Part shown: in pieces, positions 158 through 55,775 of the stretch
Layout of the letters: every line of letters begins with the position of its first letter
Position numbering within the stretch: the first letter of the stretch is position 1
From: Candidatus Eiseniibacteriota bacterium
Lineage (GTDB): Bacteria; Eisenbacteria; RBG-16-71-46
Length of the DNA stretch: 64,000 nucleotides
Assembly (NCBI GenBank): GCA_013140805.1
Contig: JABFRW010000033.1
Span: forward strand, 245 to 64,244
Reading direction: 5' to 3'
The notes under the pieces: model-generated
Databases searched by the model: none
What the model saw: the letters and a program-made list of their open reading frames with translations, nothing else
What the model was told of the DNA's origin: nothing
Program-made: the position numbers and the translations under genes

Positions 158-2194
158 TCAGCGCGCAATCGCGAGACGGCGCGTCGTAATTCGCTCGGGA
201 GTTGAATACCGAACGAAGTAGATACCGGCCGGAACCCGGTCGTGTTTCGCCCGCCCGTCCCAATTCAACTGATAGCTCCCGCGTTCGTGGCGACCCTCGG
301 CGAGGTTCGCGATCTCGCGACCGGCGAGGTCGAGAATGCTCAGTCTCACCTCGGTCGGAGCAGTGAGGGCGAATTGAATCGTCACGGGTCCGCGGGACGG
401 ATTAGGCGATACGGCGGTCAGGCCGTCCTGAAGTCGCGGATGAGCTTCGACCACGATCGGCCCGAACGCCATGCGTTCGCCGTCAGGCGAGAGAGCTTCG
501 AGGCGATACCACCACGGGTTCCCGGCCTCGATCGAGTGATCCTCCGCCACACTCACGCCGGCCTCGCGACGAATCGCGGCGGTGACCGGTGTCCACGGAC
601 CGGTCGCATTCGACGCTCGGAAAAGCTCGACCTCTGAAAATGGCGAGGGGCCCGAGAACTCCCACGACACGCGAATGCCAGCTTCGATCGGCTCGGCGTC
701 GAAGCGCACGAGCATCGTCGCGGTGGGTGACTCCCCGATCGAAATCTTCCGGACGTACACATCGCCCTGGTCCGAGCGCGTGTCGACCCAACTCACGTAC
801 GCACTTCCCGGGCCCGCAGGTTCGAGGCGCGAGCCGCCCTGAAAGCCGGGCGCGGTGCACACGGCGAGTCGGTCCGAACCGCTGATTGGCCAGAGTGAGC
901 CGCCCGCATCGACTCGCTGTGCGAACAGATCGGTTTCTCCGGGCGTCAACGAGGAGTCGGACCACACCACCATGGCCCCGCCCGATCCATCCGTGACCGT
1001 GAGCGGCAGGTCGCCATTCGCGAGCGCAGCACCCACACGAACCCCGAGTGGATCCCAGCCCGGCGGAATCGTCGCGTCGGGGCGAATGCGCTGCACACGC
1101 ACATCCTCGTGCCCGGCGCCCGGAACGTAGACGTTCCATGCGGTCAGCACGCCGCCGAGTCCGTCGGCTGCCGACCATTGACCATGGAGCGAATTCCCAC
1201 TTGTCGAGTAGAGATTCCCGAGCGCCGGCCAACCGCTGGACGGAGTCCCCGTCGGACCAAGTCTCTGAACGAAACTCCCGGCCCGAGCATGCGGCTGATC
1301 GCTTCCGTCCCAAAGCACGAAGACGCCGCCCGATTCGTCTCCGACCATCCCGAACTCTGGATAGACGTCGAAGCCGCCGACGCCGATCCCGCTGGCCGGA
1401 ACGAGTGGATCAACCACACCAGCGGCAGTGACGTGCTGAAGAACTCGCAGGTACGTTTGGACGCTCAGCGACTGAGCCCGAGAGGCCGCCGCTGTACCGT
1501 CATCCGACCAACCCACCCACACGCCGCCGGAACCGTCGAGCGACAGCACGGGTTTGTCCTGCTCGTTGAATCCAGTCTTTGTCAGAACACCATCGGTGGG
1601 CCAGCCGGGATACGGTGAACCGTCGACTTGAAGTCGATGAACGCGCACGTGTCTCCAGCCGTCCCGAGCATCCGACCATGCGACGAAAACTCCGCCGGCA
1701 CCGTCCGCGAGAATCGTTGCACTCCAAATGGTGATCGGCTCGGGCGCCGGACGCAGCCCACCGGCCGGCCAATTGGAGTCGAGCTGGCCATTCGCGGTGA
1801 CGTGAGCGACGCGAAAGCCGCTGAAGGCGGGCCACAACACGAAGGCGCCGCCTGCTCCGTCCGACGCGATCGAGTGGTCGCGCCACAAGTAGAACAACGG
1901 CTGCGGCGAAACGCCGCCGTCCCCGACGCGGACGCCACTCGTAGGCCAGCCGGCTGCGAGGTTCCCTCCCGAATCGTAGCGAGTGACGTAGGTCGCGAAT
2001 TCCGTGTCGCTCAAGCTCACCCACGATACGAGCACGCCACCCGCGGGGTCGGCGCAGATCACCGTCGAGTACTGGAGACCGGCTCCGTCGCCGACTTTCG
2101 CGCCTTGCTCGGGCCAGGTCGCATGGGCGGCCGGGGCCATGACCGCGAGAGCCGACGCGATGCAGACGAGTCGGAATGCCAGTGGGATTCGCAT
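158..2194 (-). CDS. Secreted repeat protein with C-terminal FlgD-Ig/T9SS-type sorting domain (start moved to internal Met preceding the signal peptide MRIPLAFRLVCIASALAVMAPAAHA)
   Basis: Long ORF. ATG at 2194 opens a classic signal peptide. Internal ~50-aa repeats of type DG(A/S)GG..V.W.D.R.G. An FN3-like segment is followed by the C-terminal ...NPSRGPVTIQFAL...GIYFVRY... domain shared with 5 other proteins in the window. Confidence 0.7.
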   Translation of the reverse strand: MRIPLAFRLVCIASALAVMAPAAHATWPEQGAKVGDGAGLQYSTVICADPAGGVLVSWVSLSDTEFATYVTRYDSGGNLAAGWPTSGVRVGDGGVSPQPLFYLWRDHSIASDGAGGAFVLWPAFSGFRVAHVTANGQLDSNWPAGGLRPAPEPITIWSATILADGAGGVFVAWSDARDGWRHVRVHRLQVDGSPYPGWPTDGVLTKTGFNEQDKPVLSLDGSGGVWVGWSDDGTAAASRAQSLSVQTYLRVLQHVTAAGVVDPLVPASGIGVGGFDVYPEFGMVGDESGGVFVLWDGSDQPHARAGSFVQRLGPTGTPSSGWPALGNLYSTSGNSLHGQWSAADGLGGVLTAWNVYVPGAGHEDVRVQRIRPDATIPPGWDPLGVRVGAALANGDLPLTVTDGSGGAMVVWSDSSLTPGETDLFAQRVDAGGSLWPISGSDRLAVCTAPGFQGGSRLEPAGPGSAYVSWVDTRSDQGDVYVRKISIGESPTATMLVRFDAEPIEAGIRVSWEFSGPSPFSEVELFRASNATGPWTPVTAAIRREAGVSVAEDHSIEAGNPWWYRLEALSPDGERMAFGPIVVEAHPRLQDGLTAVSPNPSRGPVTIQFALTAPTEVRLSILDLAGREIANLAEGRHERGSYQLNWDGRAKHDRVPAGIYFVRYSTPERITTRRLAIAR

Positions 2195-2826: not shown

Positions 2827-5241
2827 CTAAGGCATCAACACGACGCGCTTCGAAAACGCGCGATCGCCGACGATCGTCCGAACGAAGTACACACCTGCTC
2901 CGACTCGGCTTCCATCCGAAGCATCCCCGCGCCACGTCAGAGGCCAGCGCCCCGCTGCCATCGTCTCGCGCGCAAGTTCACGCACCAGTCGCCCGCTCGC
3001 GTCGTAGATCGCGGCATCCACGCGCGCCGCACTCGGCAGTTCCACTCGCATCGCGATGCCTGCACGTGAAGGATTCCCGGACGTGATCGCGAACGCGACT
3101 TCGCGCGGCAAGTCATCGCCCACCGCGGTCGTCCCCGCCGGCAGCACCAGCGCTGTCCCACTTTCGTTGCCATGGATGTCCACTGCCGACACGCGGTACC
3201 AGAACGGGCTCGCGCCCGCATCGATGTACCAGCTCTGCGTGGGCGATGCGATGCGATTCGCGATCGACGGCACGAAGCTGGGCGAAGCGCCGCGATACAG
3301 GCGATAGTTCGCGAGGTCCGCTTCGCCGTTCGCGTTCCACAACAGCGTAGAGCCGCCGCTCGACCAGGTTCCCGCGAAGCCGCTCGGAATGGTTGGCGGG
3401 AGGTTGTCCACCGAGTAGGCCGAGTCCTGGTTCGAGAACCAGTACACGTCAGGCACCATCGGGCCCGGCGCGTTGAAGTAGTCCACCGCTTCCACGAGTA
3501 GCTGTGTGCGCGGGTTCGATCCCGCGATCGAATCGCTCTCGGTGTCCACGGTCATGCTGTAGCCCGCGAAGTGCTGGGCCGCGACACCGCCCGCGTACTC
3601 CCAGTAGGTCGCGTTCACGCCCGTACCGATCTCGCGCAACAGACTCGCGCGGCCTGCTCGCTTGGCCGCCAGCGCGATGTTGGGCGGTACCTGCCGCCAC
3701 ACCTGGTACCCGCGCACCAGCGGATCCACCGAGTTCTCGAGCGGGCTCGCGTTCCAGCTCACCCGGACCTGTCCGCCCTGATCGTTCGGCACATCGCGTG
3801 CGTTCACGATGCGAGGCTCGGACTGCCCGATCTGTCCGAACTGATCGATGCGCTGGGCGCTGATCGTGTAGGTCGGCGAGTTCGTCACGTCGAACCAGCT
3901 CGCGAACATGCCGCTCTGCCCGGTCGGCGCCACCACCGCCGAGTTCACTGCGCCCGGCTTCGCGCACACCATGTTGCCGGTGGCGTTCCAGCCCGAGGGG
4001 CGTGTGCCGTTGGCCTTGAGTCGCATCGCCTTCACGGTGGCTCCAGCGCCACCCGAGAACTCGTGCCACAGGACGATCGCGCCCCCCTGGCCGTCCGGCG
4101 TCGCCGTCGCGGGAATCTGGTAGAACGCGAACGTGGCCACGATCGCAAGTCCTGACGACGGCCATTGAGGATCGATCATGCCGTTGAGCAGCAGGTGTGA
4201 GCCGTACACGTCGCCCTGGACGTCGGTGCGCAGGTCGTACCAGAACACGAACGCACCACCCGCTCCGTCCGACACCACGATGGCGGAGTTCTGCTCGTCG
4301 GGGGCGGCTCCCGATAGATTGCGAATCACGAATCCGCCCGAGGGATAGACGTGCGTGCTGTTGATCTCGCTCGACGCGCCCTGCACCTGAGTCCACACCG
4401 CGATCACGCCGCCGACGCCGTCGGGAATCGCGTTGAGCTGCTGAATCAGGCCAGCGGCGAAGAGCTCGGCGACGTCGCCCCCCGCAGCAAACTGAGCAAC
4501 GCCCGCTGAGTTCAACCGCTGTTTGTAGAGATTGTCGTTCGCCACGGTCAGGTCGCGCCACAGAATCCACATGCCGCCCACGCCGTCAGTGGCCGCGACG
4601 ACCTGGTCCTGAATCGACGTGTTTGAGGCGACCGCCAGGCCGCTCGCACCCCACTGCAGCACCCCTGAAGCATTGAGTCGCTGCGCGTAGGCGTCGGTGT
4701 CGCCGATCGAGAAGTTGTAGGTCCAGGCGAACATCGCACCGCCGGTGCCGTCCGGGACCAGGCCGAAGCGCGTGGACTGCGAGTTTGGCTGCGTGGCAAC
4801 GCGCACGCCGCCCGCCGTCCACAGTGCGGTGCCGGCGGAGTTGAGTCGCTGCGCAAAGATCGCGTCGACGCCGGCGACATTTTGCGCCCACGCGACGATG
4901 ACGCCGCCGGTGCCGTCCGCGACGAGCGTTCCATTGAACTGAGAGGGCGAGCCGGTGGCGATCGGCAGGCCGTTCGCGTTCCACAGCAGCGTGCCGTTCG
5001 CATCGATCCGCTGCGCGTAGACATCGCTGTTCCCCGACCGCTCGTCTGACCACACCAGGTAGTAGCCGCCGGCGCCGTCGGCGATCGAAGCGGTCGTGAA
5101 TCGCTGGCTCGCTGCCGAATAAATCGTGAGCGGTGATGCCGGATCGTTCGGCCACGCGGCGAGACACACGCCTGGAGTCAGCAGCGCCGCGAGGGCGCTT
5201 GCGAGAACGGTGAGGCGAAACCACGCCGACATCCGGGACAT
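2827..5241 (-). CDS. Secreted repeat protein (paralog of 158-2194 and 41018-43477) with DVPNDQGG module, FN3-like module and C-terminal sorting domain
   Basis: AGGAGG RBS 7 nt upstream of ATG 5241. Signal peptide MSRMSAWFRLTVLASALAALLTPGVCLA. About 8 tandem ~50-aa repeats (DGAGG..VAW......DIYAQR...G...W). C-terminus ...AGVYFVRTIV.... Confidence 0.8.
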   Translation of the reverse strand: MSRMSAWFRLTVLASALAALLTPGVCLAAWPNDPASPLTIYSAASQRFTTASIADGAGGYYLVWSDERSGNSDVYAQRIDANGTLLWNANGLPIATGSPSQFNGTLVADGTGGVIVAWAQNVAGVDAIFAQRLNSAGTALWTAGGVRVATQPNSQSTRFGLVPDGTGGAMFAWTYNFSIGDTDAYAQRLNASGVLQWGASGLAVASNTSIQDQVVAATDGVGGMWILWRDLTVANDNLYKQRLNSAGVAQFAAGGDVAELFAAGLIQQLNAIPDGVGGVIAVWTQVQGASSEINSTHVYPSGGFVIRNLSGAAPDEQNSAIVVSDGAGGAFVFWYDLRTDVQGDVYGSHLLLNGMIDPQWPSSGLAIVATFAFYQIPATATPDGQGGAIVLWHEFSGGAGATVKAMRLKANGTRPSGWNATGNMVCAKPGAVNSAVVAPTGQSGMFASWFDVTNSPTYTISAQRIDQFGQIGQSEPRIVNARDVPNDQGGQVRVSWNASPLENSVDPLVRGYQVWRQVPPNIALAAKRAGRASLLREIGTGVNATYWEYAGGVAAQHFAGYSMTVDTESDSIAGSNPRTQLLVEAVDYFNAPGPMVPDVYWFSNQDSAYSVDNLPPTIPSGFAGTWSSGGSTLLWNANGEADLANYRLYRGASPSFVPSIANRIASPTQSWYIDAGASPFWYRVSAVDIHGNESGTALVLPAGTTAVGDDLPREVAFAITSGNPSRAGIAMRVELPSAARVDAAIYDASGRLVRELARETMAAGRWPLTWRGDASDGSRVGAGVYFVRTIVGDRAFSKRVVLMP

Positions 5242-29057: not shown

Positions 29058-29233
29058 GAGGGCTCCGAGTCGACAGTCGGCGGCGGTGGAATCAGCCGAC
29101 AGAGATTGAAGGCACGCGGCGGCCCGGTCAATCCCGCTTTTTCGCTCGATGACGACCGCGCTCGAAGCAGCATCGGCAGTCGCGGCCATTCGAAGTATCC
29201 TGCCGCGTCGCCCGCCCCATGACCGGAGTCCTC

Positions 29234-31574: not shown

Positions 31575-31850
31575 GGGGGAGGTCCTCGATGCGAGTTGTG
31601 GTTGGGGCGCCCGGGGCAGCGGGGGCGCAGCAGTAGGGGTGTGCCGGATCGAAGCATGCGGCCGGACGACCGCCCGAGGCAATGGCGAAAGTCGGTGGCC
31701 AGGGCCGATGTTCGTCGAGCGGCATTCGCGCCCGACGCACTTGTCACGCCCCGGCACCCGTTCGCGGAAAACCGGCTGTCGGAGCCGCATTCGTGCCGTA
31801 AGCTTGCCCCTCTGCAAGACCGCGAGCGACTCCCAGGAGGAACGAAGACC

Positions 31851-37821: not shown

Positions 37822-38313
37822 TCAGCGTTCCGGCTTCCACGCCGCGCGCAGCTGGATCAGCACGCAGTAGAGCAGCGCCAGCGCTCCGATCGGGGCGAGG
37901 AAGATTCCGAGTCCGGGATCGCCCTCGTAGTGCTGGATTCCGCCGAGCAGAAAGCCGAGCGGCATCAGCACCGTGCCGGCGACCAACGCGCGCGAGGCGT
38001 GAAGCCGCTGCGTTGCGCCGAGGCTCGGAGCCTCGGCCCAGCGCACGTAGACGAGATTCAGCACCGAGAGCAGCGCGCCGTGAAAGTGTGCGAGCGTCAG
38101 GAACTCGCGACGCAGCGGGTCGAGCAGATAGCCGCCGAGCTTGAAGCCATGCGCGAGCTCGAGCACCAGGCCCAGGCACATCCACGCGAACAGCGAGGTC
38201 CAGCCGAAGCGACGATGAAGCAGGGCGAGCCGCTCCGCGGCCGCACCTTCGGGCCGTTGCTCCTTCGTCGAGGACTCGCCGCGTGGTTCCTTCCTGGCGC
38301 TCATGGGATTCAC
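37822..38313 (-). CDS. Small polytopic membrane protein, translationally coupled to the octaheme cytochrome
   Basis: Four predicted hydrophobic helices with conserved His residues (HGFKLGG, HFHGALL). The start overlaps, or lies within 5 nt of, the cytochrome stop. Confidence 0.55.
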   Translation of the reverse strand: MNPMSARKEPRGESSTKEQRPEGAAAERLALLHRRFGWTSLFAWMCLGLVLELAHGFKLGGYLLDPLRREFLTLAHFHGALLSVLNLVYVRWAEAPSLGATQRLHASRALVAGTVLMPLGFLLGGIQHYEGDPGLGIFLAPIGALALLYCVLIQLRAAWKPER

Positions 38314-40112
38314 TCTCCGATCGAAACCAGATGGTTGCTCTGCCGCGCGATCAGGCTCGTGATGACGTCACGCCTGGGCATGAACTCGGCATCGAGCGGG
38401 ACCGCCGCACCCGGGTGCGAGAGCCGTCGTTTGTCGAGCCCCTGCCACCACGACCACCACGATTGAAGCGCCGCGGTGCGAGCCGCCGGCTCGGCAAGAT
38501 AGTCGAACGGCGGCGACTTCGGAGCCGCCCCGATTGCCGACTCGCCGACCTCCGCACGTGCGCACAACTCGAGCAGCCCCCGATGGGCGAAGTGCCGCAC
38601 CGCGGGGTAGGGGTCCTCCATGGTCAGCAGCAGGAAGGGCACAGCCCACAGCCGCTGCGTGGGGTCCGAGGTGTACGAGCGGGCCTGCGCGAGTGCGTTC
38701 GCCGCCACCGCGCGCTGCACCACGTCGCCGCCGAACAACGAGCGGATGCTCTCTGCAGTCTCGAATGCGCGATCGCTCGGCTCGTCGTCGGGAGGCGGTG
38801 TACCGAACTGTCGCGCGGTCTCTCTCGCGGCCCAGATCGCGGTCCGATCGGTGTGGCACAACGTGCAGGCCTCCGGCATTTCGTTTCTCCACGCCCGCGC
38901 GGGTGCCGGGCTGGTGATGCGGTGGCTCGGGTGCACGGTCAGCAATCCGTAAGTGGTGGGCGGCATGTGGCAGGCGTAGCACTCGCTGCCCGAGCCCGCG
39001 GCCTCGTGCCCGGTGTGCTTCGACACGTTGCGACCGATCTCGGCGTGGCACTGCACGCAGCCGGCATTGCCGCGCATCGCCGGCTGGATCATGCCGCGCG
39101 GATCGCCGCCATGCATGTCGTGGCATGACATGCAGGTCAGGTCGCTCGAGCCGTGGCCCTCGGACGTCAGCAGTCCCTGGTACTCGTAGGCGGTGAGTCG
39201 CGGCGTCCCGTCGCTCCAGAATCGCTGGCTCAGATCGGTGCCGGCGAGTTCGGTGTGCGCGTCGATCGGCGTGGTGAAACGACTCAGGTCGTCGCCGGCC
39301 GTGTAGGGATCGCCGACCGTCATGAACTCGGCGATGCGCTCGCGCGGGTTCGGCAACCGCTGACCGTGGCAGTGGCCGCAGATCTGGATCTGCTGCATGC
39401 GCGGCAGCTCGCGCGGCGATCGGATCGTGGGGTCGCGGTCGCCGAGGTACAACAGGTAGCGCCGGAGCGGATCCCGGTTGCGACGAATGTGCAGATCCGC
39501 TGGACCGTGGCAGGCCTCGCACGCGATGCCCAGTTCGGCGACGCGAGCGTCGAAGGTATCGGTCTCGCGGTTCAGTCTCGGCTGAGCCTTCACGTTGTGG
39601 CAGAAGATGCAGTTGCTGTCCCAGTCGGTTCGATGGGCATTGAACGCGGTGGCGTCGGGATCGAGGAAGCCGCCGTTCAGATGGATCCACCGGCGTTCCT
39701 CGATGTTCCACGCGACCGGCAGGCGGACGTGCCGGTCGCCGACTCGCGTCACGTATTGCTGAATTCGACGCGAGCCGACCGTCATGGCGATCTCGTAGCG
39801 TTCCATGGTGTTCGCGGGAGACAACGTCTCGACGAAGAACCGCTCGCCGTCGCGCGTGAATCGCGACGTGACGCCCTGATAGGTGAGGCTCGCGTTCTCG
39901 AAATCGCCGACCACCGCAGTGGCGCGTGCAGGCTGAGTCATGGTGCGGTGGAAGGTGCGATGCCAGGTCTCGTAGCGCCCCGGGTGGCACATCACGCACT
40001 GCTCCGAGGTCGCATAGGCGACCTGCGGCAGTTCGACCGGCGTGCGCAGCTCGCCGGTGATTCGCGCGCCGATGGCGACCGTCGCTGCGAGGGCCGCGAG
40101 TGCGGCGATCAC
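38310..40112 (-). CDS. Octaheme c-type cytochrome (8 CxxCH) with C-terminal HEAT-like helical region; GTG start
   Basis: CVMCH, CIFCH, CEACH, CGHCH, CMSCH, CVQCH, CYACH and CTLCH. N-terminal signal/anchor IAALAALAATVAIGARITG. Confidence 0.8.
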   Translation of the reverse strand: MIAALAALAATVAIGARITGELRTPVELPQVAYATSEQCVMCHPGRYETWHRTFHRTMTQPARATAVVGDFENASLTYQGVTSRFTRDGERFFVETLSPANTMERYEIAMTVGSRRIQQYVTRVGDRHVRLPVAWNIEERRWIHLNGGFLDPDATAFNAHRTDWDSNCIFCHNVKAQPRLNRETDTFDARVAELGIACEACHGPADLHIRRNRDPLRRYLLYLGDRDPTIRSPRELPRMQQIQICGHCHGQRLPNPRERIAEFMTVGDPYTAGDDLSRFTTPIDAHTELAGTDLSQRFWSDGTPRLTAYEYQGLLTSEGHGSSDLTCMSCHDMHGGDPRGMIQPAMRGNAGCVQCHAEIGRNVSKHTGHEAAGSGSECYACHMPPTTYGLLTVHPSHRITSPAPARAWRNEMPEACTLCHTDRTAIWAARETARQFGTPPPDDEPSDRAFETAESIRSLFGGDVVQRAVAANALAQARSYTSDPTQRLWAVPFLLLTMEDPYPAVRHFAHRGLLELCARAEVGESAIGAAPKSPPFDYLAEPAARTAALQSWWSWWQGLDKRRLSHPGAAVPLDAEFMPRRDVITSLIARQSNHLVSIGE

Positions 40113-41017: not shown

Positions 41018-43477
41018 ATGCATTCGCGATATGACGTTTCCATTCGAAGCGCGCTTCTCACCGTACTGGCGTTCGCGCTCGCCGCCGGCCCCGCACAGGC
41101 GGCGTGGCTCCCCGACGCCTACGTGGGCGGCTTTGGGTTGTCCACCACGACGGCGACCCACGCCAATCCGACCGCCATCGCGGACGGCGCCGGCGGCGTC
41201 ATCGTGGTGTGGCAGGACCAGCGCAATGGCGTCGATTACGACATCTACGCGCAGCGCATCAACGCGCGGGGTGACGCGCTGTGGACGGCGAACGGCGTCG
41301 CGGTGTGCAGCGCGACCAATGCCCAGATCCTTCCGGTCGTCACCTCCGACGGTGCCGGTGGCGCCATCATCGCGTGGCAGGACTTTCGCAATGGCAGCCA
41401 CTACGACGTGTTCGCTCAGCGCGTGAACGCGAACGGCACGACCGCGTGGACCGCCAGCGGCATCAACGTGTGCAACGCCGCCGGGATTCAGGAAGCGCTC
41501 GCCATCATCAGCGACGACGCGGGTGGCGCGATTCTGACCTGGCAGGACCTTCGATCGGGCGGGACCAACGACATCTACGCGCTTCGCGTGGGGCCGACCG
41601 GCACCTCGCTGTGGACCGCGAATGGACGAGCGGTGAGTGTGGCGGGTGGGTCGCAGCTGGCGCCGAGGCTGGCGTCCGACGGCGCCAATGGCGCGATCAT
41701 CAGCTGGCACGACCTGCGCGGCGCCAACTACGACATCTACGCGCAGCGCGTTCCCGCCAGCGGCATCCCGCAGTGGACGGCCGATGGCGTGTCGGTGTGC
41801 AACGCCGCGGGCAATCAGACGTCTTCGATGATCGTCTCCGACTATGTCGGCGGCGCGGTCATCACCTGGGATGACGCGCGCTCCGGCACCTCGGACATCT
41901 ATGCGCAGCGCGTGGGTCCGAACGGGACGACGCTGTGGGTCGCCAACGGCTCGGCGGTCTGCACCGCGACCAATGCGCAGGTCACGCCTTCGATCGCCAC
42001 CGACGGCTCGGGCGGTGCGATCATCGCGTGGACCGACTGGCGCGCGGTGGCCACCAACTCGCAGGACATCTATGCCCAGCGAGTGAACGCGGCAGGATTC
42101 ACGGCATGGACTTCCAACGGCGTGCCGCTCCACACCACCACGACCGGGGCCCAGATCGCCCCGGTGTGCGTGAGCTCGGACGGCCTCGGCGGTGCGATCA
42201 TCTCGTGGGCCGACTCCCGCAGCATGCTCAACTACGACGCCTACGCCCAGCGCGTGGGGCCCAACGGCACCCGCTACTGGAATGACGAAGCGCTGGTGAC
42301 CGGCGCGGTGCTCGATCAGTACGTCATCGCACTCGTGAGCGACGGCGCGCAGGGCGCCTACGCCGTGAGCATCGACAATCGCAATGGCGTGTTCAAGACC
42401 TACGCGCAGAAGCTCAATGCCAGCAGTTCGCTGGGTGACTGCACGCCGCGCATCGTGTCGGTGCGCGACGTTCCGAATGATCAGGGCAGCTTCGTCAACC
42501 TGCGTTTCGATCGCAGCCGGCTGGACCTCCAGATCGACGATAATTTCCAGGTCGATTACACGATCTGGCGCCAGGTCCCGAACGCCGCGGCACTCGCAGC
42601 GCTCAAGGGCGGTGCTCGGCTGCTGGCGGCCGGCGAGCGTGCGGAACGGGGCGGCGCCGATCGCGGGCTGCTGCGAAAGACGGTGGAGATGAACGGCGTC
42701 ACCTATTACTGGGAGCAGTGGGACTGGGTGGATGGTCGCGGCATTCCGAGCTACGGAGCCGTGCTCGAGACCACTTCGGACTCGCTGCCGAGCTCGAATC
42801 CGCGCACGCTGTACATGGTCGAGGCGCAGTCGTACGAGGACGGCGACTACTGGTACTACCAGTCAGCTCCCGACAGCGGCTACTCGGTCGACAATCTGCC
42901 GCCGGGTGCTCCGGGCTCGTTCGCGGCTCAGTACGCCGCGGGCACCACGCAGCTGCACTGGGCGCCGGTCGTGGCACCCGACTTCGCGGGCTACCGGCTC
43001 TATCGCGGCGGCACGCTGACGTTCACTCCCGGCCCCGGCAATCTGGTCCAGGCGGTGTCGGACACCGGCTACACCGACGCTGCGGGCGGGCCGTACGTCT
43101 ACAAGCTCACCGCGGTCGATCTGCACGGCAACGAATCGCCGATCGCGACCGTTGCGCCGACCGGCATCGTCGACGCGCCGCCTGCGGGTCCGGCGGTGTT
43201 CTTCCTGGGCGCGCCGGTTCCGAATCCAGCGCGCGCGAACCTCGGGGTGACGCTGCGCTTCGGGCTTGCCCGGCCGGGCGAGGCGCGAGTGCGCGTGTTC
43301 GATGCACAGGGTCGACTGGTGCGGACACTCGAGAGCGGGCCCCATGCCGCGGGCGAGCATGTGGCGCGCTGGGATGGACGAAACGATCACCACGTACCGC
43401 TCGCTGCGGGGCTCTACTTCGTGAGGCTCGAGGCCGAATCGCGAGTCGCGACCACGCGCGTGACGCTGCTGTGGTGA
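41018..43477 (+). CDS. Secreted repeat protein (paralog of 158-2194 / 2827-5241): 8 x ~50-aa repeats, DVPNDQG module, FN3-like module, C-terminal sorting domain
   Basis: Signal peptide MHSRYDVSIRSALLTVLAFALAAGPAQA. Repeat consensus DGAGGAIIAWQD.R.G..DIYAQRV...G...WT.NGV.VC. C-terminus ...AGLYFVRLEAES.... Confidence 0.8.
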   Translation: MHSRYDVSIRSALLTVLAFALAAGPAQAAWLPDAYVGGFGLSTTTATHANPTAIADGAGGVIVVWQDQRNGVDYDIYAQRINARGDALWTANGVAVCSATNAQILPVVTSDGAGGAIIAWQDFRNGSHYDVFAQRVNANGTTAWTASGINVCNAAGIQEALAIISDDAGGAILTWQDLRSGGTNDIYALRVGPTGTSLWTANGRAVSVAGGSQLAPRLASDGANGAIISWHDLRGANYDIYAQRVPASGIPQWTADGVSVCNAAGNQTSSMIVSDYVGGAVITWDDARSGTSDIYAQRVGPNGTTLWVANGSAVCTATNAQVTPSIATDGSGGAIIAWTDWRAVATNSQDIYAQRVNAAGFTAWTSNGVPLHTTTTGAQIAPVCVSSDGLGGAIISWADSRSMLNYDAYAQRVGPNGTRYWNDEALVTGAVLDQYVIALVSDGAQGAYAVSIDNRNGVFKTYAQKLNASSSLGDCTPRIVSVRDVPNDQGSFVNLRFDRSRLDLQIDDNFQVDYTIWRQVPNAAALAALKGGARLLAAGERAERGGADRGLLRKTVEMNGVTYYWEQWDWVDGRGIPSYGAVLETTSDSLPSSNPRTLYMVEAQSYEDGDYWYYQSAPDSGYSVDNLPPGAPGSFAAQYAAGTTQLHWAPVVAPDFAGYRLYRGGTLTFTPGPGNLVQAVSDTGYTDAAGGPYVYKLTAVDLHGNESPIATVAPTGIVDAPPAGPAVFFLGAPVPNPARANLGVTLRFGLARPGEARVRVFDAQGRLVRTLESGPHAAGEHVARWDGRNDHHVPLAAGLYFVRLEAESRVATTRVTLLW

Positions 43478-43571: not shown

Positions 43572-44294
43572 TCAGGGCGCGATCAGGACCCGGGCGCGCG
43601 AGGTCCCGAGCGTGTCGCCGGAGCGGACCGCGGCCACCTGCACCACGATCGTCTCGCCTGCAGGAAGCGTGAACGGCAGATTGGCGAGTGCCGAGTGGAA
43701 CGAAGTCGTCGACAGTGGGCCGAGCGTTCCGATCTCCTGCAGCTCGGGGGTGAAGATCCGCACCACGTAGCCTTCGGCATCAGAGACGCCGGCCCACTCG
43801 AGGTCGAGCCCGCCGACTCCCAGTTCGGCACGACCGAGCGCGAATTCGGCGATCGCGCGCTCGCCGCGCAGCACCGGCTCGCCGCCACGGGGTGCCGGTG
43901 TCATGGCGAGGCGAGGCCACACCGCGACCCCGCCGAGCACGAGTGCGAGAACCGCGAACGCGAGCGCCGGCCGCAGCGAGGGATGCAGCAGCCGCTCGAG
44001 CCACGAGAGTCCGGTCGCGTTCGCGCTTCGTTTTCCGGAGGTCGCGTCGGCGATCGGACGCGCGGAGGAGCCCGCAATCCCGGTCATCGAAGCGACGACC
44101 TCGTCGAGTCGGGCGGCGGCACGCGCGACGTGATCGGACTGCAGCTCGGAGCCCGGCGAGAGGAACAACCGGTAGCTCTCGAGAAGCGAGGAGCAGCGTG
44201 GACAGTCTCGCGCATGCCGGCGGCGCGGGTCCGACTCCGAAAGGGCGAAGACCTCGGCCAGCGCCTCGGGCTCGAAGCAGTCCTTCGACTTCAT
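43572..44294 (-). CDS. Anti-sigma factor, ZAS-type zinc finger, single TM, periplasmic C-domain
   Basis: AGGGAGGG RBS. The H-x3-C-x2-C motif RHARDCPRC and the TM helix LRPALAFAVLALVLGGVAVW are present. ATGA overlap with the upstream ECF sigma gene. Confidence 0.65.
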   Translation of the reverse strand: MKSKDCFEPEALAEVFALSESDPRRRHARDCPRCSSLLESYRLFLSPGSELQSDHVARAAARLDEVVASMTGIAGSSARPIADATSGKRSANATGLSWLERLLHPSLRPALAFAVLALVLGGVAVWPRLAMTPAPRGGEPVLRGERAIAEFALGRAELGVGGLDLEWAGVSDAEGYVVRIFTPELQEIGTLGPLSTTSFHSALANLPFTLPAGETIVVQVAAVRSGDTLGTSRARVLIAP

Positions 44295-44881
44295 GACACC
44301 GCCCTCCCTGATTCCTCGAGCGCCGCCCGCAATCGCCGCCGCGCCCGCTGCAACAGGGCTCGCGCGCCGGTGGCGTTCTCGAGCCCCATCACCTTCGTGA
44401 TCGATTCGACCGAGAGCCGCTCGATGCATCGCAACCACAGCGCGCGCCGCTCGGCCTCGTCGAGCTTGTCCATCATGAGCTGCCGCAACCGTTCTTCGTC
44501 CTCGGCTCGCTCGTAGGCTGCATCGGGCGCTGCCGCCGGATGCTCGGCGGCGTCGGGGTCGGCGTCCTCATCCACGAGCAACGCCGGTGCCGAGACCGCC
44601 TTGAGACAACAATTCCGCGCAATCACGAACAGCCATGACGAGAACCGCGACCGACCCTCGAACGACGACATCGCGCGATACGCGCGCAGCAGCACGTCCT
44701 GCGTCAGATCCATGGCGCGGTCCGGATCCCGTACGTAGCGGAAACACCACAAGTAGACCTGGCGATGGTAGCGACGCAACAACTCGGAAGCCGCCTCACG
44801 GCTGCCGACACTGTCCGGATCGCGAGCCGCGATCCGCAGCAGTGTTTCGTCATCTCGCTCGCGGGTCGCAGAACCCGTCAT
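44291..44881 (-). CDS. ECF (sigma-70 family group 4) RNA polymerase sigma factor
   Basis: Region 2 (...RYHRQVYLWCFRYVRDPDRAMDLTQDVLLRAYRAMSSF...) and region 4 (...SVESITKVMGLENATGARALLQRARRRLR...) are both present. Confidence 0.8.
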   Translation of the reverse strand: MTGSATRERDDETLLRIAARDPDSVGSREAASELLRRYHRQVYLWCFRYVRDPDRAMDLTQDVLLRAYRAMSSFEGRSRFSSWLFVIARNCCLKAVSAPALLVDEDADPDAAEHPAAAPDAAYERAEDEERLRQLMMDKLDEAERRALWLRCIERLSVESITKVMGLENATGARALLQRARRRLRAALEESGRAVS

Positions 44882-44909
44882 GCAGTGAGAGCCCCCGTGG
44901 GGCCGGAAA

Positions 44910-47714
44910 TCACACCGGGATCCCGGAAAGGCGCCGGCGGTCCCTCGAGGTCCAGGCGAGGAGCAGCGAGAGGAGCGCCGACACCCCGCCAGCATAAGCC
45001 GCAACCCGGTTCGGCAGAAGGGGATGCATTCGGACCGGAACCCCGAGTGCCGCGTCGCCCAGCAGCACGAATCCGGACCAGTAGAACGGGTGGACGGTGC
45101 GCGGATCGGCCCGCACCGAGCGCTGCGCCCGGGCGAGCGCCCGACCGGCATCGTCGCCCAGCGTCAGCCGTTCGTAAAAGCGCCGCACGATGCGGGAGGT
45201 GGCCTGATCGTCGACTGGCCACAGGCTCGCGACCACCGCCGGCGAGCCGGCCGCCAGGAACGCACTCGCGAGGCCTGCGACACCTTCCCCGGAGCGCACT
45301 CGATTGCCGACCGAGGCGCAGCTCGCGAGCACCACGAGATCGGCATCGAGCGAGAGCTTCGCGATCTCACCGGCGGTCAGCATCTCGCCGTCGGCTCCGC
45401 GCAGTCCCGGCAGCCGCGTTTGCCAGGGGCGCAGATCGTCCGGCTGCGTGTGACCCGCGAAGTGAACGATCGCGGTACCCGCCAGATCGGCGACCACCCC
45501 GCCTCGTCCGAGTACGCGTGCCTGATTGAGGTGGGCGCCGATCCACGCCAGCTCGGAGCGCGCGCCCGCGAGCCGAAGTGAAGAGTCGCGAGCGCCGAGT
45601 GCCACCACGCCGCGTTGCCGCACCTGCGTGCGACCGCGCGCGATGCGCCGCAGATCGGCGAGCAGCGAGGCGGCCGGCAGGACGCTCACTTCGCGCTGGG
45701 CGAGCAGCGGCTCCGGGCCGGTCCCGAGATCGACCATCAAGGCTCCGACCGGAACCAGATGCAGCGCATCGTCCCCGATCACGAATACCCGCGACTGGGT
45801 CGCGAGCAGATCGCGCACCGGATCGAGCAGCCGGGCGCCGAGTGTCGCGAGCACCCGACGGGTCGCGAGGGAATCGAGTCGCACCTCGCCCGCAGGCTGT
45901 GAAATGACGTCGCGCGCCAGTGCGAGCTGACGCCACAGCCCGCGCGGCGGCAACGTGACCAGCCGGCAGGAGTCTCGCGTCACCGCGAACAGCCACGCAT
46001 GATCCGCGGCGATGAAGAAGTCCAGCAGCAGCTCACCGGGCGCCAGGGTTTCGAGCTGCAGCGTCGCGAGCTTGACCGGCTGGAGCCCCGCGCGGTCCGC
46101 GCGGCGGCTCGGACGCGGGCCGAAGGTGCGTTCGATCAGCGTGCGGGCCTTGAATCGCTGCAGGCGGTCGAAGGCGAGCTCCGTCCGACGGGCCGCGCTG
46201 CCTGACTCGCCCACGATGGTCAGCGCGAGCCACTCGCTCGCCAGCGTGCGCGATTCGATCGCCAGGGTCTCCCGCCACTCGGCGGCCGAACTGCGGCTGC
46301 GCCCCGACTCCCACGACGTGACCGCGGAATCGAGCAACGCCAGTGCCGCCACCGTGTGGCCGCGATCGCGTTCGACGCGGGCCAGCATCGTGAGGGCATT
46401 CGCGATGACGAAGCCCTCGGCGATCGTGCGGCCCCCGGTGAGTGCCCGTTCGGACCAGCGTCGACACGCGGCTGCGTGACCGAGACGGTACTCGGCCTCG
46501 GCGAGCACCAGATGCTGCCACGCGAGAAACGCGATCCCGATCTTGCCTTCGAACGAGTTGAGATGGCGTGCGATCAGTGCACGCGCGCTGTCGGGCTGGT
46601 TCATGGCGAGGAACGTCATCCCCAGTCGCGTGACCGCGATCGCGCGCACGTCGATCTGCGCCGACGGCTCGTCCATCGCGGCGCTGAATGCGGTCGCGGC
46701 CTCGCGCAGTCGCCCCTGCTCGGCTCGCACCCGGCCGATCTGGCTCAGCACCATCGGAATCTGCGGCCGAAGCCCGTTGTCGCGGCATGCGGTCAGCAAC
46801 GTGTCGAGCAGCGCGAGCGCTTCGTTCGATCGGCCCAGCGTGGCGAGCGAAGAGGCGAGATCGGCACCCGGGTACGCCGCCTGCGAGAACAGTCCGAGCC
46901 GTCGATAGGTTTCGTACGAGGCACGCTGGTATTCAGCGGCGAGCGACAGATCGCCGCCGGTGGTCTCGATCATCGCAAGGTTGCCGAGCGCGTGGGCGAT
47001 ATAGGCCGACTGCACATGGATGCGGCTCAGCTCGAGCGCGCGCAGGTTCGAGCTCCGCGCGGCTCGATAGTTGCCGAGGCCGAATTCGGAACGTCCGAGT
47101 CCGAGGCGCGCGAGGATCTCGCCATTCGGCTCATCGAGCGCCGCCAGCGAATCGGCGGCGCGCGCATATTCGTCGCGGGCCCGCCGGAAGTCGCCGTCGA
47201 TCACCGCGTACCAGCCGAACGAAATGTGTGCGCGTGCGTCGTGGACTCGATCGCCGATGCTGCGGGCCAGACGCTGCATGCGCTCGGCCACCGGACGGGC
47301 CTGGCTGATGCGACCCTGCTGCTGGAGCGCGAAATCTTTCCAGCGCAGCGCATTCACCAGCGTGAGCGTGTCGCGAAGTCGTTCCGCGAGCTGCACCGCT
47401 TCGTCGATGGCGGCGGCTCCGAGCGTCACGTCACCGCGGCGAATGCGAAGCTGGCCCTCGCGCCGCAGCAACCACAGCACGGCGATCGAGTCGCGCCCCG
47501 CGCGGGCGCTGCGCAGGTGGGGGGCGAGCAGCGTCAGCACCTGCTCATGAGCGCCGGCTTCGTAAAGCGAGTCGGTATGGCGTGCGACTGATTCGAGCCC
47601 ACGCCCGGCAGGGGCAGGCCTCGCGTCCGCGGCCGCATGGGCGCCGGTCGGCATGGCTCCGGCGACCAGCAGCGCGATGGCGAGAGAGAGCGGGAGGGCC
47701 ACGCGAGCAGTCAC
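44910..47714 (-). CDS. Secreted TPR-repeat protein with C-terminal CHAT (caspase-like) peptidase domain and C-terminal hydrophobic anchor
   Basis: Signal peptide MTARVALPLSLAIALLVAGAMPTGAHA. Multiple TPR-like helical repeats. The CHAT dyad context is IVHFAGHT ... LVVLASCAS. Terminal hydrophobic stretch AAYAGGVSALLSLLLAW. Confidence 0.8.
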   Translation of the reverse strand: MTARVALPLSLAIALLVAGAMPTGAHAAADARPAPAGRGLESVARHTDSLYEAGAHEQVLTLLAPHLRSARAGRDSIAVLWLLRREGQLRIRRGDVTLGAAAIDEAVQLAERLRDTLTLVNALRWKDFALQQQGRISQARPVAERMQRLARSIGDRVHDARAHISFGWYAVIDGDFRRARDEYARAADSLAALDEPNGEILARLGLGRSEFGLGNYRAARSSNLRALELSRIHVQSAYIAHALGNLAMIETTGGDLSLAAEYQRASYETYRRLGLFSQAAYPGADLASSLATLGRSNEALALLDTLLTACRDNGLRPQIPMVLSQIGRVRAEQGRLREAATAFSAAMDEPSAQIDVRAIAVTRLGMTFLAMNQPDSARALIARHLNSFEGKIGIAFLAWQHLVLAEAEYRLGHAAACRRWSERALTGGRTIAEGFVIANALTMLARVERDRGHTVAALALLDSAVTSWESGRSRSSAAEWRETLAIESRTLASEWLALTIVGESGSAARRTELAFDRLQRFKARTLIERTFGPRPSRRADRAGLQPVKLATLQLETLAPGELLLDFFIAADHAWLFAVTRDSCRLVTLPPRGLWRQLALARDVISQPAGEVRLDSLATRRVLATLGARLLDPVRDLLATQSRVFVIGDDALHLVPVGALMVDLGTGPEPLLAQREVSVLPAASLLADLRRIARGRTQVRQRGVVALGARDSSLRLAGARSELAWIGAHLNQARVLGRGGVVADLAGTAIVHFAGHTQPDDLRPWQTRLPGLRGADGEMLTAGEIAKLSLDADLVVLASCASVGNRVRSGEGVAGLASAFLAAGSPAVVASLWPVDDQATSRIVRRFYERLTLGDDAGRALARAQRSVRADPRTVHPFYWSGFVLLGDAALGVPVRMHPLLPNRVAAYAGGVSALLSLLLAWTSRDRRRLSGIPV

Positions 47715-48695: not shown

Positions 48696-50414
48696 TCAGC
48701 CCCTCGTCATCGCGATGATCGCGAACACCAGCACCAGCAACGCCTCGCCGGCGATGAAGCCCGAGGACAGCGGCAGGTTGAACGCGTCCTCGCTGCTGGG
48801 ATGCGACTTCTTCCACGCCCACTGTGCGATTCCGCCGAGCACCATGGGCATCACCGCGAGGCCCGGCACCAGCATGCCGATGCCGACGCCGGTCGGCGAC
48901 GGCAGGAAGCGGCGATGCTTCGGCTCGAAGACCGTGATGATCGCACCGACGACGACGGCAACGAGCAGCGCCTGGAAGCAGCCGGCCGGAAGCGCCGAGA
49001 AGCCCTGATTGAGCAGCTCGGCGAAGCCCGCCCACTTGACGCTGATCGGAGACGACAGGCCCTCGCCGCCGACGCCGTACTTGGCCTTGAGCGCCGGGTA
49101 GACCAGCGAGACCGCGATCGCTCCGACCGGCACCGCGAGGAGCTGCATGATCGTGAGATTGCGGTTCGATGAGCCGACGATCTTGCCGGCTTTGTAGTCC
49201 TGCATCAGGTGCTCGCCGTTGGCGGCGATGGTGCCGGACATCCCGGAGCCGATCATGTTGATGGCCATGTTGCCGGGCGCGAGTACGGCGAATACCGCCT
49301 GCATGAGGTTCGCCATCGCGCTGATCGGGGCCCAGTTGGTTTCGCCGAGTACGCGCGTACCCACCAGCATCAGGATCATCGAGAGCACCAGCGAGACCAG
49401 CGACAGCCACAGCGGGAAGCCGAGGCTGATCCATTGCACGAGGAACAGCGCGAGGCTCGCCACGATGACGCCCGTCACCACCCACTTGAGCGGAAAGTCG
49501 GTGCTCCCGACCTGGGCGGTGCGCAGGTTCACGAACGTTTTCGCGACCAGCTTCCACTTGAGCAGCAGTGCCGTGATCCCGCCGGCGACGAGCAATCCGG
49601 TCGCCGGCCACATCACCCAGCGCAGCACCAGCGGAAAGGTCTGCTCGGCCACGATGCCGCGGGAGACCAGCATCGGCGGGGCGATCACCCACGACAACAG
49701 CATGCCGAGTCCCATCGAGAGCGCGATGCGCGGTCCCACCAGCATGCCGGAGCCGAAGCTCAGGAGACTCACTTCGGAGCCCATGCGTAGCGCCTCGCCG
49801 CTGGGACCGAAGCTGATGTGGTCCGGCAGCTTTTTGACGCCGTCTCTCAGCCACGCGGCCAGTGCGGAGAGCCCGATGCCGATGCCGAGTGCGGTGACGC
49901 GTGGACCCGCTTCCTTCGGGCCCTGATCCAGCACCAGCAGCGTCTCGCCGGCCGCGGTGCCGTCGGCGAAGGTGAGGTTTTCCTCGTCGATGAAGTGCCG
50001 GCGCAGCGGCACGGCGAGCAGCACGCCGACGATTCCGGCGAGGCTCAGCCACAGGAAGGTCTGCAGCACGGTCAGATGGAGCGAGAAGCCCAGCTCGGGC
50101 TTCTGATTCAGCATGTCGATGGCGGCCAGCACCACGCACATGAATCCCGCCTGCCCGGCGGTGGTGCCCGCGGTCTGCACCATGTTGTTCTCCCACCGCG
50201 TTCCGCGCCCGCCGACGACCAGACCGATCACCGACAGCGCGATGTAGCCGAAGAACGCGCTCACCACCGAGATGTTCGGGCCATAGCCGAGCTTGAGCAC
50301 GACGTAGGGATACGAGCCGGCAATCAGGGCCGCGACCACCAGGGCCACGGTGATCGAGCGAAAGGTGAGTTCGCGATGCGGCGCGCCAGTGGCGTCGTCG
50401 GCGTGGGCGTCCAT
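48696..50414 (-). CDS. OPT family oligopeptide transporter
   Basis: 572-aa polytopic membrane protein with OPT-like sequence throughout. GGAGG RBS before ATG 50414. The upstream extension in the track is unsupported. Confidence 0.8.
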   Translation of the reverse strand: MDAHADDATGAPHRELTFRSITVALVVAALIAGSYPYVVLKLGYGPNISVVSAFFGYIALSVIGLVVGGRGTRWENNMVQTAGTTAGQAGFMCVVLAAIDMLNQKPELGFSLHLTVLQTFLWLSLAGIVGVLLAVPLRRHFIDEENLTFADGTAAGETLLVLDQGPKEAGPRVTALGIGIGLSALAAWLRDGVKKLPDHISFGPSGEALRMGSEVSLLSFGSGMLVGPRIALSMGLGMLLSWVIAPPMLVSRGIVAEQTFPLVLRWVMWPATGLLVAGGITALLLKWKLVAKTFVNLRTAQVGSTDFPLKWVVTGVIVASLALFLVQWISLGFPLWLSLVSLVLSMILMLVGTRVLGETNWAPISAMANLMQAVFAVLAPGNMAINMIGSGMSGTIAANGEHLMQDYKAGKIVGSSNRNLTIMQLLAVPVGAIAVSLVYPALKAKYGVGGEGLSSPISVKWAGFAELLNQGFSALPAGCFQALLVAVVVGAIITVFEPKHRRFLPSPTGVGIGMLVPGLAVMPMVLGGIAQWAWKKSHPSSEDAFNLPLSSGFIAGEALLVLVFAIIAMTRG

Positions 50415-50551
50415 TCGGCCTCCGAGGGTGGGAACGTAGAGGCCGGAGACCTTAGCGCAGGCTCCGCTCGTCGTCATTCGGGAATCGAGCGCCCCTCGCG
50501 CGTCATTCCGTGCTTGACGGCTGCCCGCCGGCGCACGCAGTGTGACCCGCC

Positions 50552-51904
50552 ATGCGCTTTCCCGATCTGCTCGCGACTCGGCCGGGTCGCATGGCCGCAT
50601 TCTTCTTCCTCTACATGACCGAGGGCATTCCCCTCGGTTTCACGGCCACCGCGATCGCCACTCAGATGCGCCGCCAGGGCCTCGGCCCGGCCGAGATCGG
50701 GGCGTTCGTCGCCTCGCTCTACCTGCCGTGGGCATTCAAGTGGGCGACCGGGCCGTTCGTCGACGTGATCGCCTCGGATCGGCTCGGGCGCCGACGCGGC
50801 TGGATCCTCATCATGCAGTTGCTGATGGTGGCGACGCTGCTGATCGCGTTCCCGGTCGACTACGTGAAGAACCTGCAGTTCTTCACGGTGCTCATCTTCA
50901 TCCACAACCTGTTCGCGGCCACCATGGACGTCGCGATCGACGCACTCGCGGTCAACGTCCTGCCCGAGGCGGAGCGTGGTGCCGCGAACGGCTTCATGTT
51001 CGGCGGCGCCTATATCGGCCAGGCGGTCGGCGGTGCCGGCGTGCTGTTCCTGGTGCCGCATCTGGGCTTCCCGCCGACCTTCTTCGTGGTCGCCGCCACC
51101 ATCCTCCTGGTCACGGTGTTCGTGGTGCTGCCGTTGCGCGAGCCACCAGGTCCGCCGCGCCCGGCGGTGATCGGCAGCAAGCTCGTCGCGATCGGCACCG
51201 AGATCGGACAGTTCGCCAAGGACGCCTTCAGCGCCTTCATCGGCAGCCGGGGTGCGTTCGTGGGACTGCTGTTCGCGCTGCTGCCGGGCGGCGCCTATGC
51301 GCTCGGTCTCGCGCTGCAATCGAATCTCGCGGTCGAGCTGGGCTTGAACGACACGCAGGTGGGCTTCATCAATCTGTGGTCGACCGTGATCTCGGCGGTG
51401 TTCTGCGTCGCCGGCGGGTGGCTCTCGGATCGCTTCGGCCGCCGCATCACGCTCGCGTGGACGATGGCCGCGACGGTGCTGCCGACCCTCTATCTCGCCT
51501 ACGTGATGCATCAACAGCACTGGATCATGCCGGTGCCGCTCGATGCCGCGAATCGCGCGGTCCCGAGTGCGGTGCTGGTCGGAACCTTCTGGGCGACAGT
51601 GCTGATCTACAACGTGTTCCAGGGTCTTTACTACGGCATCCGCACGGCGCTGTTCATGGACGTCACCACGCCTCGAGTGGCGGCGACTCAGTTCACCGCC
51701 TACATGGCGCTCATGAATCTCGCAATCTCGTTCAGCGCGCAGTGGCAGGGCTGGGCGGTCGAGCGATTCGGGTATCCGAAGACGCTCGCCGCCGATTGCG
51801 TGATCGGACTCGTGTGTCTGGCGTGCCTGCCGTTCATGGGCGCGGTCAAGAAACGCATGGACGCGGGACCGGGTGCTGCGATTCCCGAGGCGATCGCGCC
51901 CTAG
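50552..51904 (+). CDS. MFS transporter (AmpG/PAT-like)
   Basis: 12-TM profile with an MFS signature region around GRRRGWIL. Confidence 0.75.
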   Translation: MRFPDLLATRPGRMAAFFFLYMTEGIPLGFTATAIATQMRRQGLGPAEIGAFVASLYLPWAFKWATGPFVDVIASDRLGRRRGWILIMQLLMVATLLIAFPVDYVKNLQFFTVLIFIHNLFAATMDVAIDALAVNVLPEAERGAANGFMFGGAYIGQAVGGAGVLFLVPHLGFPPTFFVVAATILLVTVFVVLPLREPPGPPRPAVIGSKLVAIGTEIGQFAKDAFSAFIGSRGAFVGLLFALLPGGAYALGLALQSNLAVELGLNDTQVGFINLWSTVISAVFCVAGGWLSDRFGRRITLAWTMAATVLPTLYLAYVMHQQHWIMPVPLDAANRAVPSAVLVGTFWATVLIYNVFQGLYYGIRTALFMDVTTPRVAATQFTAYMALMNLAISFSAQWQGWAVERFGYPKTLAADCVIGLVCLACLPFMGAVKKRMDAGPGAAIPEAIAP

Positions 51905-55706: not shown

Positions 55707-55751
55707 GTCGGGATTCCAAAGCGAAGGGGAGAGTTCGCGCGGAGGCGCGGC

Positions 55752-55775
55752 GGCGGCCGCGACATCGCGGCCGCC
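55752..55775. terminator. 10-bp-stem GC hairpin downstream of the cyclophilin gene
   Basis: GGCGGCCGCG-acat-CGCGGCCGCC inverted repeat in the 55707-55791 gap. Confidence 0.3.

Follow-up and report, generated by a model that had tools for sequence, protein, structure and literature searches.

Three genes in the 64,000-nucleotide stretch of DNA analysed here (hereafter the window), which lies on one 65.9-kb contig of a Candidatus Eisenbacteria metagenome-assembled genome (MAG), encode paralogous secreted proteins built on a tandem repeat. They are gene A (41018..43477, plus strand, 819 amino acids (aa)), gene B (2827..5241, minus strand, 804 aa) and the more divergent gene C (158..2194, minus strand, 678 aa, with its start at 2194 as in the deposited model), and their open reading frames (ORFs) match exactly the deposited models NOT33227.1, NOT33193.1 and NOT33191.1, respectively. 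The NCBI names of the three are 'T9SS type A sorting domain-containing protein', as for A, or 'hypothetical protein', as for B. In short, our reading is that A, B and C are probably type IX secretion system (T9SS) cargo, and that each displays an eight-bladed beta-propeller on the cell surface, where it would bind ligands.

The repeat unit and its predicted fold

The repeat was recognised independently of any model by comparing protein A with itself. When unit 1 of A (aa 50-104) was searched by BLASTP against the remainder of the protein, seven more copies were found, which are 46-55% identical to it (E 4e-19 to 6e-6). A hidden Markov model (HMM) of the repeat, built from A, B and 44 orthologues (46 sequences, with C left out), detects eight units per protein in A, B and C alike, the last at E 2.7e-41 even though it is outside the model, and matches no other ORF of the window. 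These counts, together with the exact gene models, bear out an earlier interpretation of this DNA made from its letters alone (the sequence-only reading), which had placed eight tandem repeats in each of the three genes. Its view that the three form a paralogous family also holds; A aligns with B from end to end (35% identity across 783 aa, E 2e-118).

The repeat period is 54-55 aa, with unit 6 of A extending to 59 aa; the unit of about 50 aa that had been proposed was therefore correct as a repeat and too short in length. The HMM consensus, SPAIVSDGAGGAIVTWQDLRSGTNYDIYAQRVNASGAVQWTANGVAVCTATGDQT, agrees with the motif given in the sequence-only reading. Over 368 units, W, D, R, Y and Q are invariant at fixed spacing, and the blades show extreme regularity, with about half of their positions constrained. 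Within one protein, blades 1-7 share about as much similarity (55%) as equivalent blades of different orthologues do (54%); only blade 8 is position-specific. No tandem repeat was found at the DNA level, and hence there is no DNA trace of recent amplification; for this reason, we read the missing positional orthology as saturation around a constrained core rather than as recent re-amplification.

The fold of the repeat region was predicted with AlphaFold2. The full-length model of A, made with 46 orthologues, has a predicted local distance difference test score (pLDDT) of 87.3 overall and of ~95 in the repeats. A Foldseek search with this model was swamped by arrays of fibronectin type III (FN3) and immunoglobulin-like (Ig) domains and was uninformative on the propeller, so the propeller was modelled alone, resulting in a pLDDT of 88.4, a predicted template modelling score (pTM) of 0.90 and a strand pattern of 8 x 4. 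As modelled, each unit is one four-stranded blade, and eight blades form a closed propeller. Strand A (Q-x-x-P-x-I-x-S) begins at the conserved Q and is connected through the DGxGG hairpin with strand B (AIVTWxD); the B-C loop (xRxGxxx) then leads to strand C (DIYAQRV), which is followed by a 12-residue C-D loop with the pattern G…W…G and by strand D (VAxC).

In A, the eight blades occupy aa 48-477 (41159..42448, plus strand), on the evidence of the BLASTP self-matches, the HMM units, AlphaFold2 and Foldseek, and they start at aa 48, 103, 158, 213, 267, 321, 379 and 434. Ahead of the next domain, the predicted secondary structure of blade 8 comprises only strands A-C. Its last, outer strand (D) would come from an N-terminal partial unit, aa 29-47 (41102..41158, plus strand; predicted strand at aa 39-40), which would close the ring in the classical 'velcro' manner. 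In 33 of the 46 orthologues, this partial ninth unit resembles positions ~38-54 of the repeat HMM, QWTANGVAVCTATGDQ, that is, the strand-D part; the copies of A and B are degenerate in sequence. The propeller of B lies approximately at 3814-5157, and the eight degenerate blades of C at about 725-2119, both on the minus strand.

The number of blades is also supported by unit counts among relatives. Eight units were counted in 48 and sixteen in 55 of 120 homologues, and at 80 independent genome loci, 83 of the 102 repeat-bearing ORFs have eight units; giant relatives have 8+8+8 or 16+8 units. Such quantised counts of 8, 16 and 24 support a closed ring of eight blades. The sequence-only reading had found the repeat spacing compatible with an eight-bladed propeller and had proposed structure prediction as a check on the repeat region; the prediction yielded a confident propeller model of 8 x 4 strands, the structural neighbours are propellers, and the tandem unit could be defined as 54-55 aa. 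Among the giant relatives, P0121 (4506 aa), P0122 (4286 aa), P0124 (2485 aa) and P0125 (5506 aa) have at least three blade arrays that are split by other sequence, with up to 31 blade units detected in P0125.

Searched against the PDB by Foldseek, the propeller model matched 367 chains at E<=1e-3. The best 50 of these have E values of 4e-8 to 9e-6, probabilities of 0.99-1.00, identities of 8-14% and template modelling (TM) scores of 0.24-0.55. We take all 50 to be beta-propellers, as we recognise the entries; the fold itself is absent from the hit table. The top entries include the GH145 protein BT3686, S9 peptidases, CV39L/PHL lectins, sialidases, a PL42 lyase and GH43 proteins. It is clear that the fold is a beta-propeller, but none of the solved structures is closely related.

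Downstream modules and export signals

In A and B, which share one architecture, the propeller is followed by two further modules and a C-terminal sorting domain. The first module (A: aa 478-615, 42449..42862, plus strand, delimited by AlphaFold2 secondary structure; B: approximately 3415-3813, minus strand) opens with an invariant D-x-P-N-D-Q-G and is here called the DVPNDQG module. The prediction is of a beta-sandwich, probably FN3/Ig-like, into which a helix and a flexible loop are inserted, and Pfam has no match to it; its invariant residues are D484, D488, G490, Y514, W565, Y579, T585 and D588. The second module (A: aa 616-716, 42863..43165, plus strand; B: approximately 3127-3414, minus strand) carries the pattern NLPP…LHW…YRLYRG…YKLTAVDLHGNES. 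The family profile finds the FN3 region of 5z06 (E 5.7e-5) and, weakly, fibronectin (E 0.1-0.9), the C-terminal half of the full-length model was aligned by Foldseek to FN3 arrays, and by eye, the motifs PP..P…L.W, Y.LYR and Y.V.AVD..GNES agree with what is typical of FN3; Pfam fn3 is not matched by aa 610-720 of A. The FN3-like character that the sequence-only reading had seen in this module appears to hold in A and B.

That reading had placed the two modules after the repeats in all three genes, which is true of A and B and not of C. Protein C lacks both the DVPNDQG and the NLPP modules and has no similarity to aa 477-720 of A; its propeller is followed by one different, short beta-rich linker and then by the C-terminal sorting domain.

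The sorting domain is shared by all three proteins and is located at aa 735-819 of A (43220..43474, plus strand), at approximately 2830-3084 in B and at approximately 170-412 in C (both minus strand). It was overlooked by the sequence-only reading, and it is the only part of A-C that is currently annotated. Against the cut-off of 27 bits, Pfam FlgD_ig scores 45.2 (A), 38.3 (B) and 31.4 (C) bits, so all three pass. NCBIfam TIGR04183, the model for the T9SS type A sorting domain with a cut-off of 23 bits, is passed by A (31.6 bits) and C (28.4 bits), and PDB profile matches of this domain in A are to FlgD and to the C-terminal domain of PorU.

At the other end of each protein, a signal peptide was read by eye as a hydrophobic core followed by AQA/AW in A, CLA/AW in B and AHA/TW in C. 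In A, it would comprise aa 1-28 (41018..41101, plus strand; …GPAQA/AW), with a putative cleavage site that puts the start of the mature part at 41102, and in this region the AlphaFold2 model shows a helix (aa 6-22) and, after it, a segment of low confidence. The signal peptides of B and C lie approximately at 5158-5241 and 2120-2194, respectively (both minus strand). Two marks of T9SS type A cargo are present, namely the C-terminal sorting domain and, by reading of the sequence, the N-terminal Sec signal peptide.

In this respect, A-C resemble the T9SS type A cargo of Bacteroidota (e.g., gingipains), which likewise has an N-terminal signal peptide and a C-terminal beta-sandwich sorting domain. 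Unlike that cargo, they come from an uncultured Eisenbacteria MAG, their functional domain is an uncharacterised propeller, and the T9SS of their host is a putative one. By analogy with the Bacteroidota, the proteins would be exported through Sec across the inner membrane, the C-terminal domain would route them through the T9SS and then be cleaved, and the mature proteins would end up anchored at the cell surface, where one or two FN3-like modules may serve as a stalk that keeps the propeller at a distance. We regard this description of the structure and export of the proteins as very likely correct.

Parts of this architecture are also found elsewhere. The M28 peptidase of the window carries a FlgD_ig/T9SS-type C-terminal domain, the same type as in A, B and C. 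Long Eisenbacteria contigs also encode the cassette of DVPNDQG module, FN3-like module and sorting domain by itself, in proteins with a length of about 335-380 aa. For example, P0268, P0298 and P0349 (242-378 aa, on contigs of 71-202 kb) contain part or all of the cassette and no propeller; P0349, at 242 aa, covers only 58% of the query. Because of the length of their contigs, these are probably not truncated gene calls.

Known relatives and candidate function

The repeat has no model in Pfam (2025 copy), in which A, B and C were searched at E<=1 and a triple consensus unit at E<=10. In particular, SBBP (PF06739), PD40 (PF07676), WD40, NHL, Kelch, FG-GAP, BNR and PQQ have no match in A, B or C or in the triple consensus unit. 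When 18 orthologues were searched against Pfam at E<=0.01, matches of this kind were scattered singles only: Beta-prop_WDR35 in three proteins, BNR_4 in one and GH43 in one. Matches to the recurring DUF1491, Mtf2_C and Lipoprotein_15, and to fn3 and other Pfam models, were judged to be sums of weak matches rather than homology, with only the C-terminal domain being real. PDB sequence searches with full-length and propeller profiles found no relative of the repeats, the best match being a WD40 protein at E 0.076, and nothing on this family was found in the literature on Eisenbacteria and T9SS, on TIGR04275/SBBP, or on related phyla and T9SS.

The only curated model that recognises the blades is TIGR04275 ('beta_prop_Msarc'), which describes a beta-propeller repeat of 40 positions. 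It matches A at E 8.9e-9 (35.0 bits; 39.9 bits for the propeller alone), B at E 8.4e-4 (19.0 bits) and all 18 orthologues (best E 3.8e-26), through model positions ~2-35, and it does not match C. In A, the best stretch (aa 97-128) extends from strand D across strand A, the DGxGG hairpin and strand B into the B-C loop. The cut-off of 85 bits is passed by the 16-blade relatives P0010 (113.9 bits) and P0020 (139.6 bits) and failed by A, B and C. The score per blade is weak, about 4-9 bits, and the unit here has 54-55 aa against the 40 positions of the model; TIGR04275 is therefore a distant relative and not a description of this repeat. The seed proteins of TIGR04275, which we take to be Methanosarcina surface proteins, would also differ from the bacterial proteins here, with their ring of eight blades, FN3-like stalk and T9SS sorting domain. 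Judged from these profile matches, the blade is a distant relative of the TIGR04275 repeat, and A, B and C are not formal members of that family. The sequence-only reading had called the repeat undescribed, and had pointed to a confident profile assignment to an existing repeat family as what would speak against this. The claim stands as far as Pfam, the PDB and the literature are concerned, and it has to be qualified by TIGR04275, which matches A, B and every orthologue searched and exceeds its cut-off in two relatives. In short, the repeat family has so far been absent from Pfam and from solved structures, yet the proteins are beta-propeller surface proteins of a known type.

PD40/TolB blades look alike by eye (…S-DG…, R-x-G, D-I-Y, G), S9-peptidase propellers (8wt1, 5yzm, 3iun) are among the best Foldseek matches, and NCBIfam TolB models match 3 of the 18 orthologues weakly. 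No peptidase domain is attached here, and kinship with PD40 is not supported, as the Pfam PD40 model remains unmatched even at E<=10 and an hhalign comparison of the family profile with the PD40 propeller of the window's S9 peptidase gave a probability of 0.3%. The best global superposition is with lectins of the PLL/PHL/CV39L type (6gxs, 6flu; TM 0.54 by query and 0.65-0.67 by target). These lectins are seven-bladed and bind sugars at repeated sites. Like the present family, they are highly regular secreted propellers, with an identity to it of 8-12%; they have no motif in common with it, no FN3 stalk and no T9SS sorting domain. Such a lectin is the functional model that we favour for the propeller, with sugar binding as its putative activity.

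The pattern of conservation offers further guidance on function. Across the 46 orthologues, all propeller columns that are invariant or at least 90% conserved are positions of the repeat motif, and none is specific to one blade; conserved residues that are equal in every blade suggest a scaffold rather than an asymmetric active site. Entropy is highest at unit positions 1, 17, 19 and 55, all within or beside the loops B-C and D-A; given the canonical topology of propellers, these two loops would lie on one face. Aromatic residues, mostly Tyr, make up 14.8% of the variable positions on this B-C/D-A face, versus a share of 2.6% in the loops on the other side. The propellers of larger relatives are accompanied by PKD, Ig-like and right-handed beta-helix domains, and no catalytic Pfam domain was found in these proteins. 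We propose that the propeller may be a binding platform rather than an enzyme, displayed on the cell surface, and that its variable, Tyr-rich face would bind glycans or proteins with a specificity that differs between paralogues. On these patterns of conservation and composition, ligand binding is the role that we favour, and we put it forward tentatively.

Several points weigh against the reading of A-C as surface-displayed, eight-bladed, ligand-binding T9SS cargo. No experimental study of any family member was found. There is no eight-bladed structure among the top 50 Foldseek matches, and the best TM scores are only 0.46-0.55. The blade count, ring closure and loop faces derive from secondary structure, pTM, unit counts and canonical topology, and are not measured geometry. 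B scores 22.9 bits with TIGR04183, 0.1 below the cut-off of 23. Finally, the top Foldseek matches include many enzymes: GH145 BT3686 (5muk, E 4.3e-8), S9 peptidases (8wt1, 5yzm), the PL42 rhamnose-glucuronate lyase (7esn), sialidases and GH43.

The last point would fit a catalytic propeller, i.e., a glycoside hydrolase, a polysaccharide lyase, a sialidase-like enzyme or the substrate-gating propeller of a protease, secreted for feeding. The abundance of peptidases in the window and its oligopeptide transporter agree with this, as does the right-handed beta-helix of some larger relatives, a fold common in polysaccharide-active enzymes. However, identity to the Foldseek enzymes is 8-14% with a TM of at most 0.55, and these enzymes are 5-7-bladed, compared with eight blades in the present model. 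Moreover, no catalytic family of Pfam or NCBIfam is matched, and no peptidase domain is fused. The strongly conserved columns recur in all blades, and no blade has a constellation of Asp, Glu, His or Tyr of its own, such as would mark an asymmetric active site. We therefore consider a catalytic role unlikely.

Equally unlikely, in our view, is a purely structural role as an S-layer-like surface coat, in which propellers that lack a specific ligand would tile the cell surface or shield it. Points in its favour are the very high abundance of the family and its multiple copies, the extreme regularity of the blades, with about half of their positions constrained, and the nearest curated model, TIGR04275, which presumably derives from surface proteins of Methanosarcina. 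A uniform lattice, however, fits the variable Tyr-rich face and the many divergent paralogues per genome less well than does diversified binding, and no evidence for self-association was obtained.

The combination of propeller and beta-sandwich C-terminal domain also resembles PorZ, which has two propellers and a C-terminal domain and delivers anionic lipopolysaccharide (A-LPS) to the PorU sortase. PorZ (5m11) and PorU (6za2) are among the Foldseek matches of the full-length model, and A-C might thus be components of the secretion and attachment machinery rather than its cargo. This is very improbable, since NF052228 (T9SS_PorZ) matches the C-terminal domain alone, with 10.3-14.1 bits, 13.8 among them, against a cut-off of 260, and three paralogues occur within 64 kb, with up to three in tandem elsewhere, whereas components of secretion machinery are normally single-copy. 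As for the idea that high G+C content or a low-complexity composition merely mimics a repeat, to which the 67.7% G+C of the window and the Ala- and Gly-rich units might point, it is already refuted, with hardly any residual likelihood, by composition-adjusted BLASTP between units (E down to 4e-19), the residues invariant at fixed spacing, the confident structure prediction and thousands of homologues.

Spread, surroundings and meaning of the family

The family to which A, B and C belong is very large and uncharacterised, and it is found mainly in uncultured lineages of the Fibrobacterota-Chlorobiota-Bacteroidota (FCB) group. A word-indexed search returned at least 7,965 family matches, and when the propeller profile was run exhaustively with HMMER, the clusters at 50% identity numbered 43,865 at E<=1e-3, 29,052 at E<=1e-10 and 12,887 at E<=1e-30. 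The suggestion in the sequence-only reading of a lineage-specific expansion has to be abandoned, as the family has 12,887 clusters even at the strictest threshold and is found in MAGs from a wide range of phyla, chiefly those of the FCB group. In species-representative genomes, there are at least 586 matching loci; the best 80 of them are all in MAGs, most of which bear the label Eisenbacteria, Krumholzibacteriota, Latescibacterota or Ignavibacteriota, while a few are assigned to Bacteroidota, Fibrobacteraceae, Gemmatimonadota and others.

At 15 of these 80 loci, two or three paralogues lie side by side on the same strand. The B-C pair of the window resembles such loci, but a DinB-family gene is located between B and C. 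Six of the loci (L004, L014, L035, L047, L051 and L064) are SMAG-series records labelled Udaeobacter, Saccharimonadales or Patescibacteria. Because T9SS-type cargo is unexpected in these groups, we suspect that the bins are mislabelled or contaminated.

The neighbours of A-C in the window comprise the DinB-family protein, a DUF4301 protein, a multihaem cytochrome, an esterase and a pair of an extracytoplasmic function (ECF) sigma factor and an anti-sigma factor, and they suggest no functional link. The DUF4301 protein (5379-7295, minus strand; 533 bits) adjoins gene B, and the multihaem cytochrome c, which has paired CXXCH motifs, is encoded upstream of gene A (38310-40112, minus strand). The ECF-type sigma factor (Sigma70_r2/r4_2) and a 288-aa ORF that has no Pfam match lie at 43572-44438 and 44291-45151 (minus strand), convergent with gene A, whose stop codon is about 100 bp from the end of the pair; to judge from its C-x-x-C motif and its hydrophobic stretch, the 288-aa ORF may encode the anti-sigma factor.

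Across the window, Pfam identifies peptidases of the families M20, S9 (prolyl oligopeptidase with a PD40 propeller), M28, M32 and M48, as well as an OPT oligopeptide transporter, at 7884-9692 (+), 13019-15631 (+), 26535-29231 (-), 48699-50639 (-), 54174-55796 (-) and 58237-60351 (+). A window so rich in peptidases suggests a protein-degrading lifestyle. A stop-free frame of 851 codons at 31023-33575 (+), with no Pfam match at E<=1e-5, is a putative ORF. A 570-aa ORF at 61212-62921 (-) has a weak match (31.5 bits, aa 496-558) to HZS_alpha (hydrazine synthase alpha subunit, middle domain); rather than indicating anammox metabolism, this probably reflects a domain of beta-propeller or cytochrome-associated type.

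What has been found here is a gap in annotation and not new biology, a new mechanism or a new system. At NCBI, family members take their names from the sorting domain only or appear as hypothetical proteins. With a proper domain model, tens of thousands of metagenomic proteins would be annotated, in phyla that lack cultured representatives. With their regular blades and the lack of positional orthology in blades 1-7, these proteins are also a natural case for studying propeller evolution and for repeat-protein design.

A bolder interpretation, which we rate as rather unlikely, is that the propeller represents a new class of multivalent surface lectin or adhesin and is a major means by which uncultured bacteria of the FCB group (Eisenbacteria, Krumholzibacteriota, Latescibacterota and Ignavibacteriota) attach to or capture polymers. 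If this were true, the class would be among the largest families that have no Pfam model, structure or known function. It would offer eight near-identical sites per ring, and 16 or 24 in the larger proteins, and its specificity would be set by a few Tyr-rich, hypervariable loop positions, with many paralogues in each genome.

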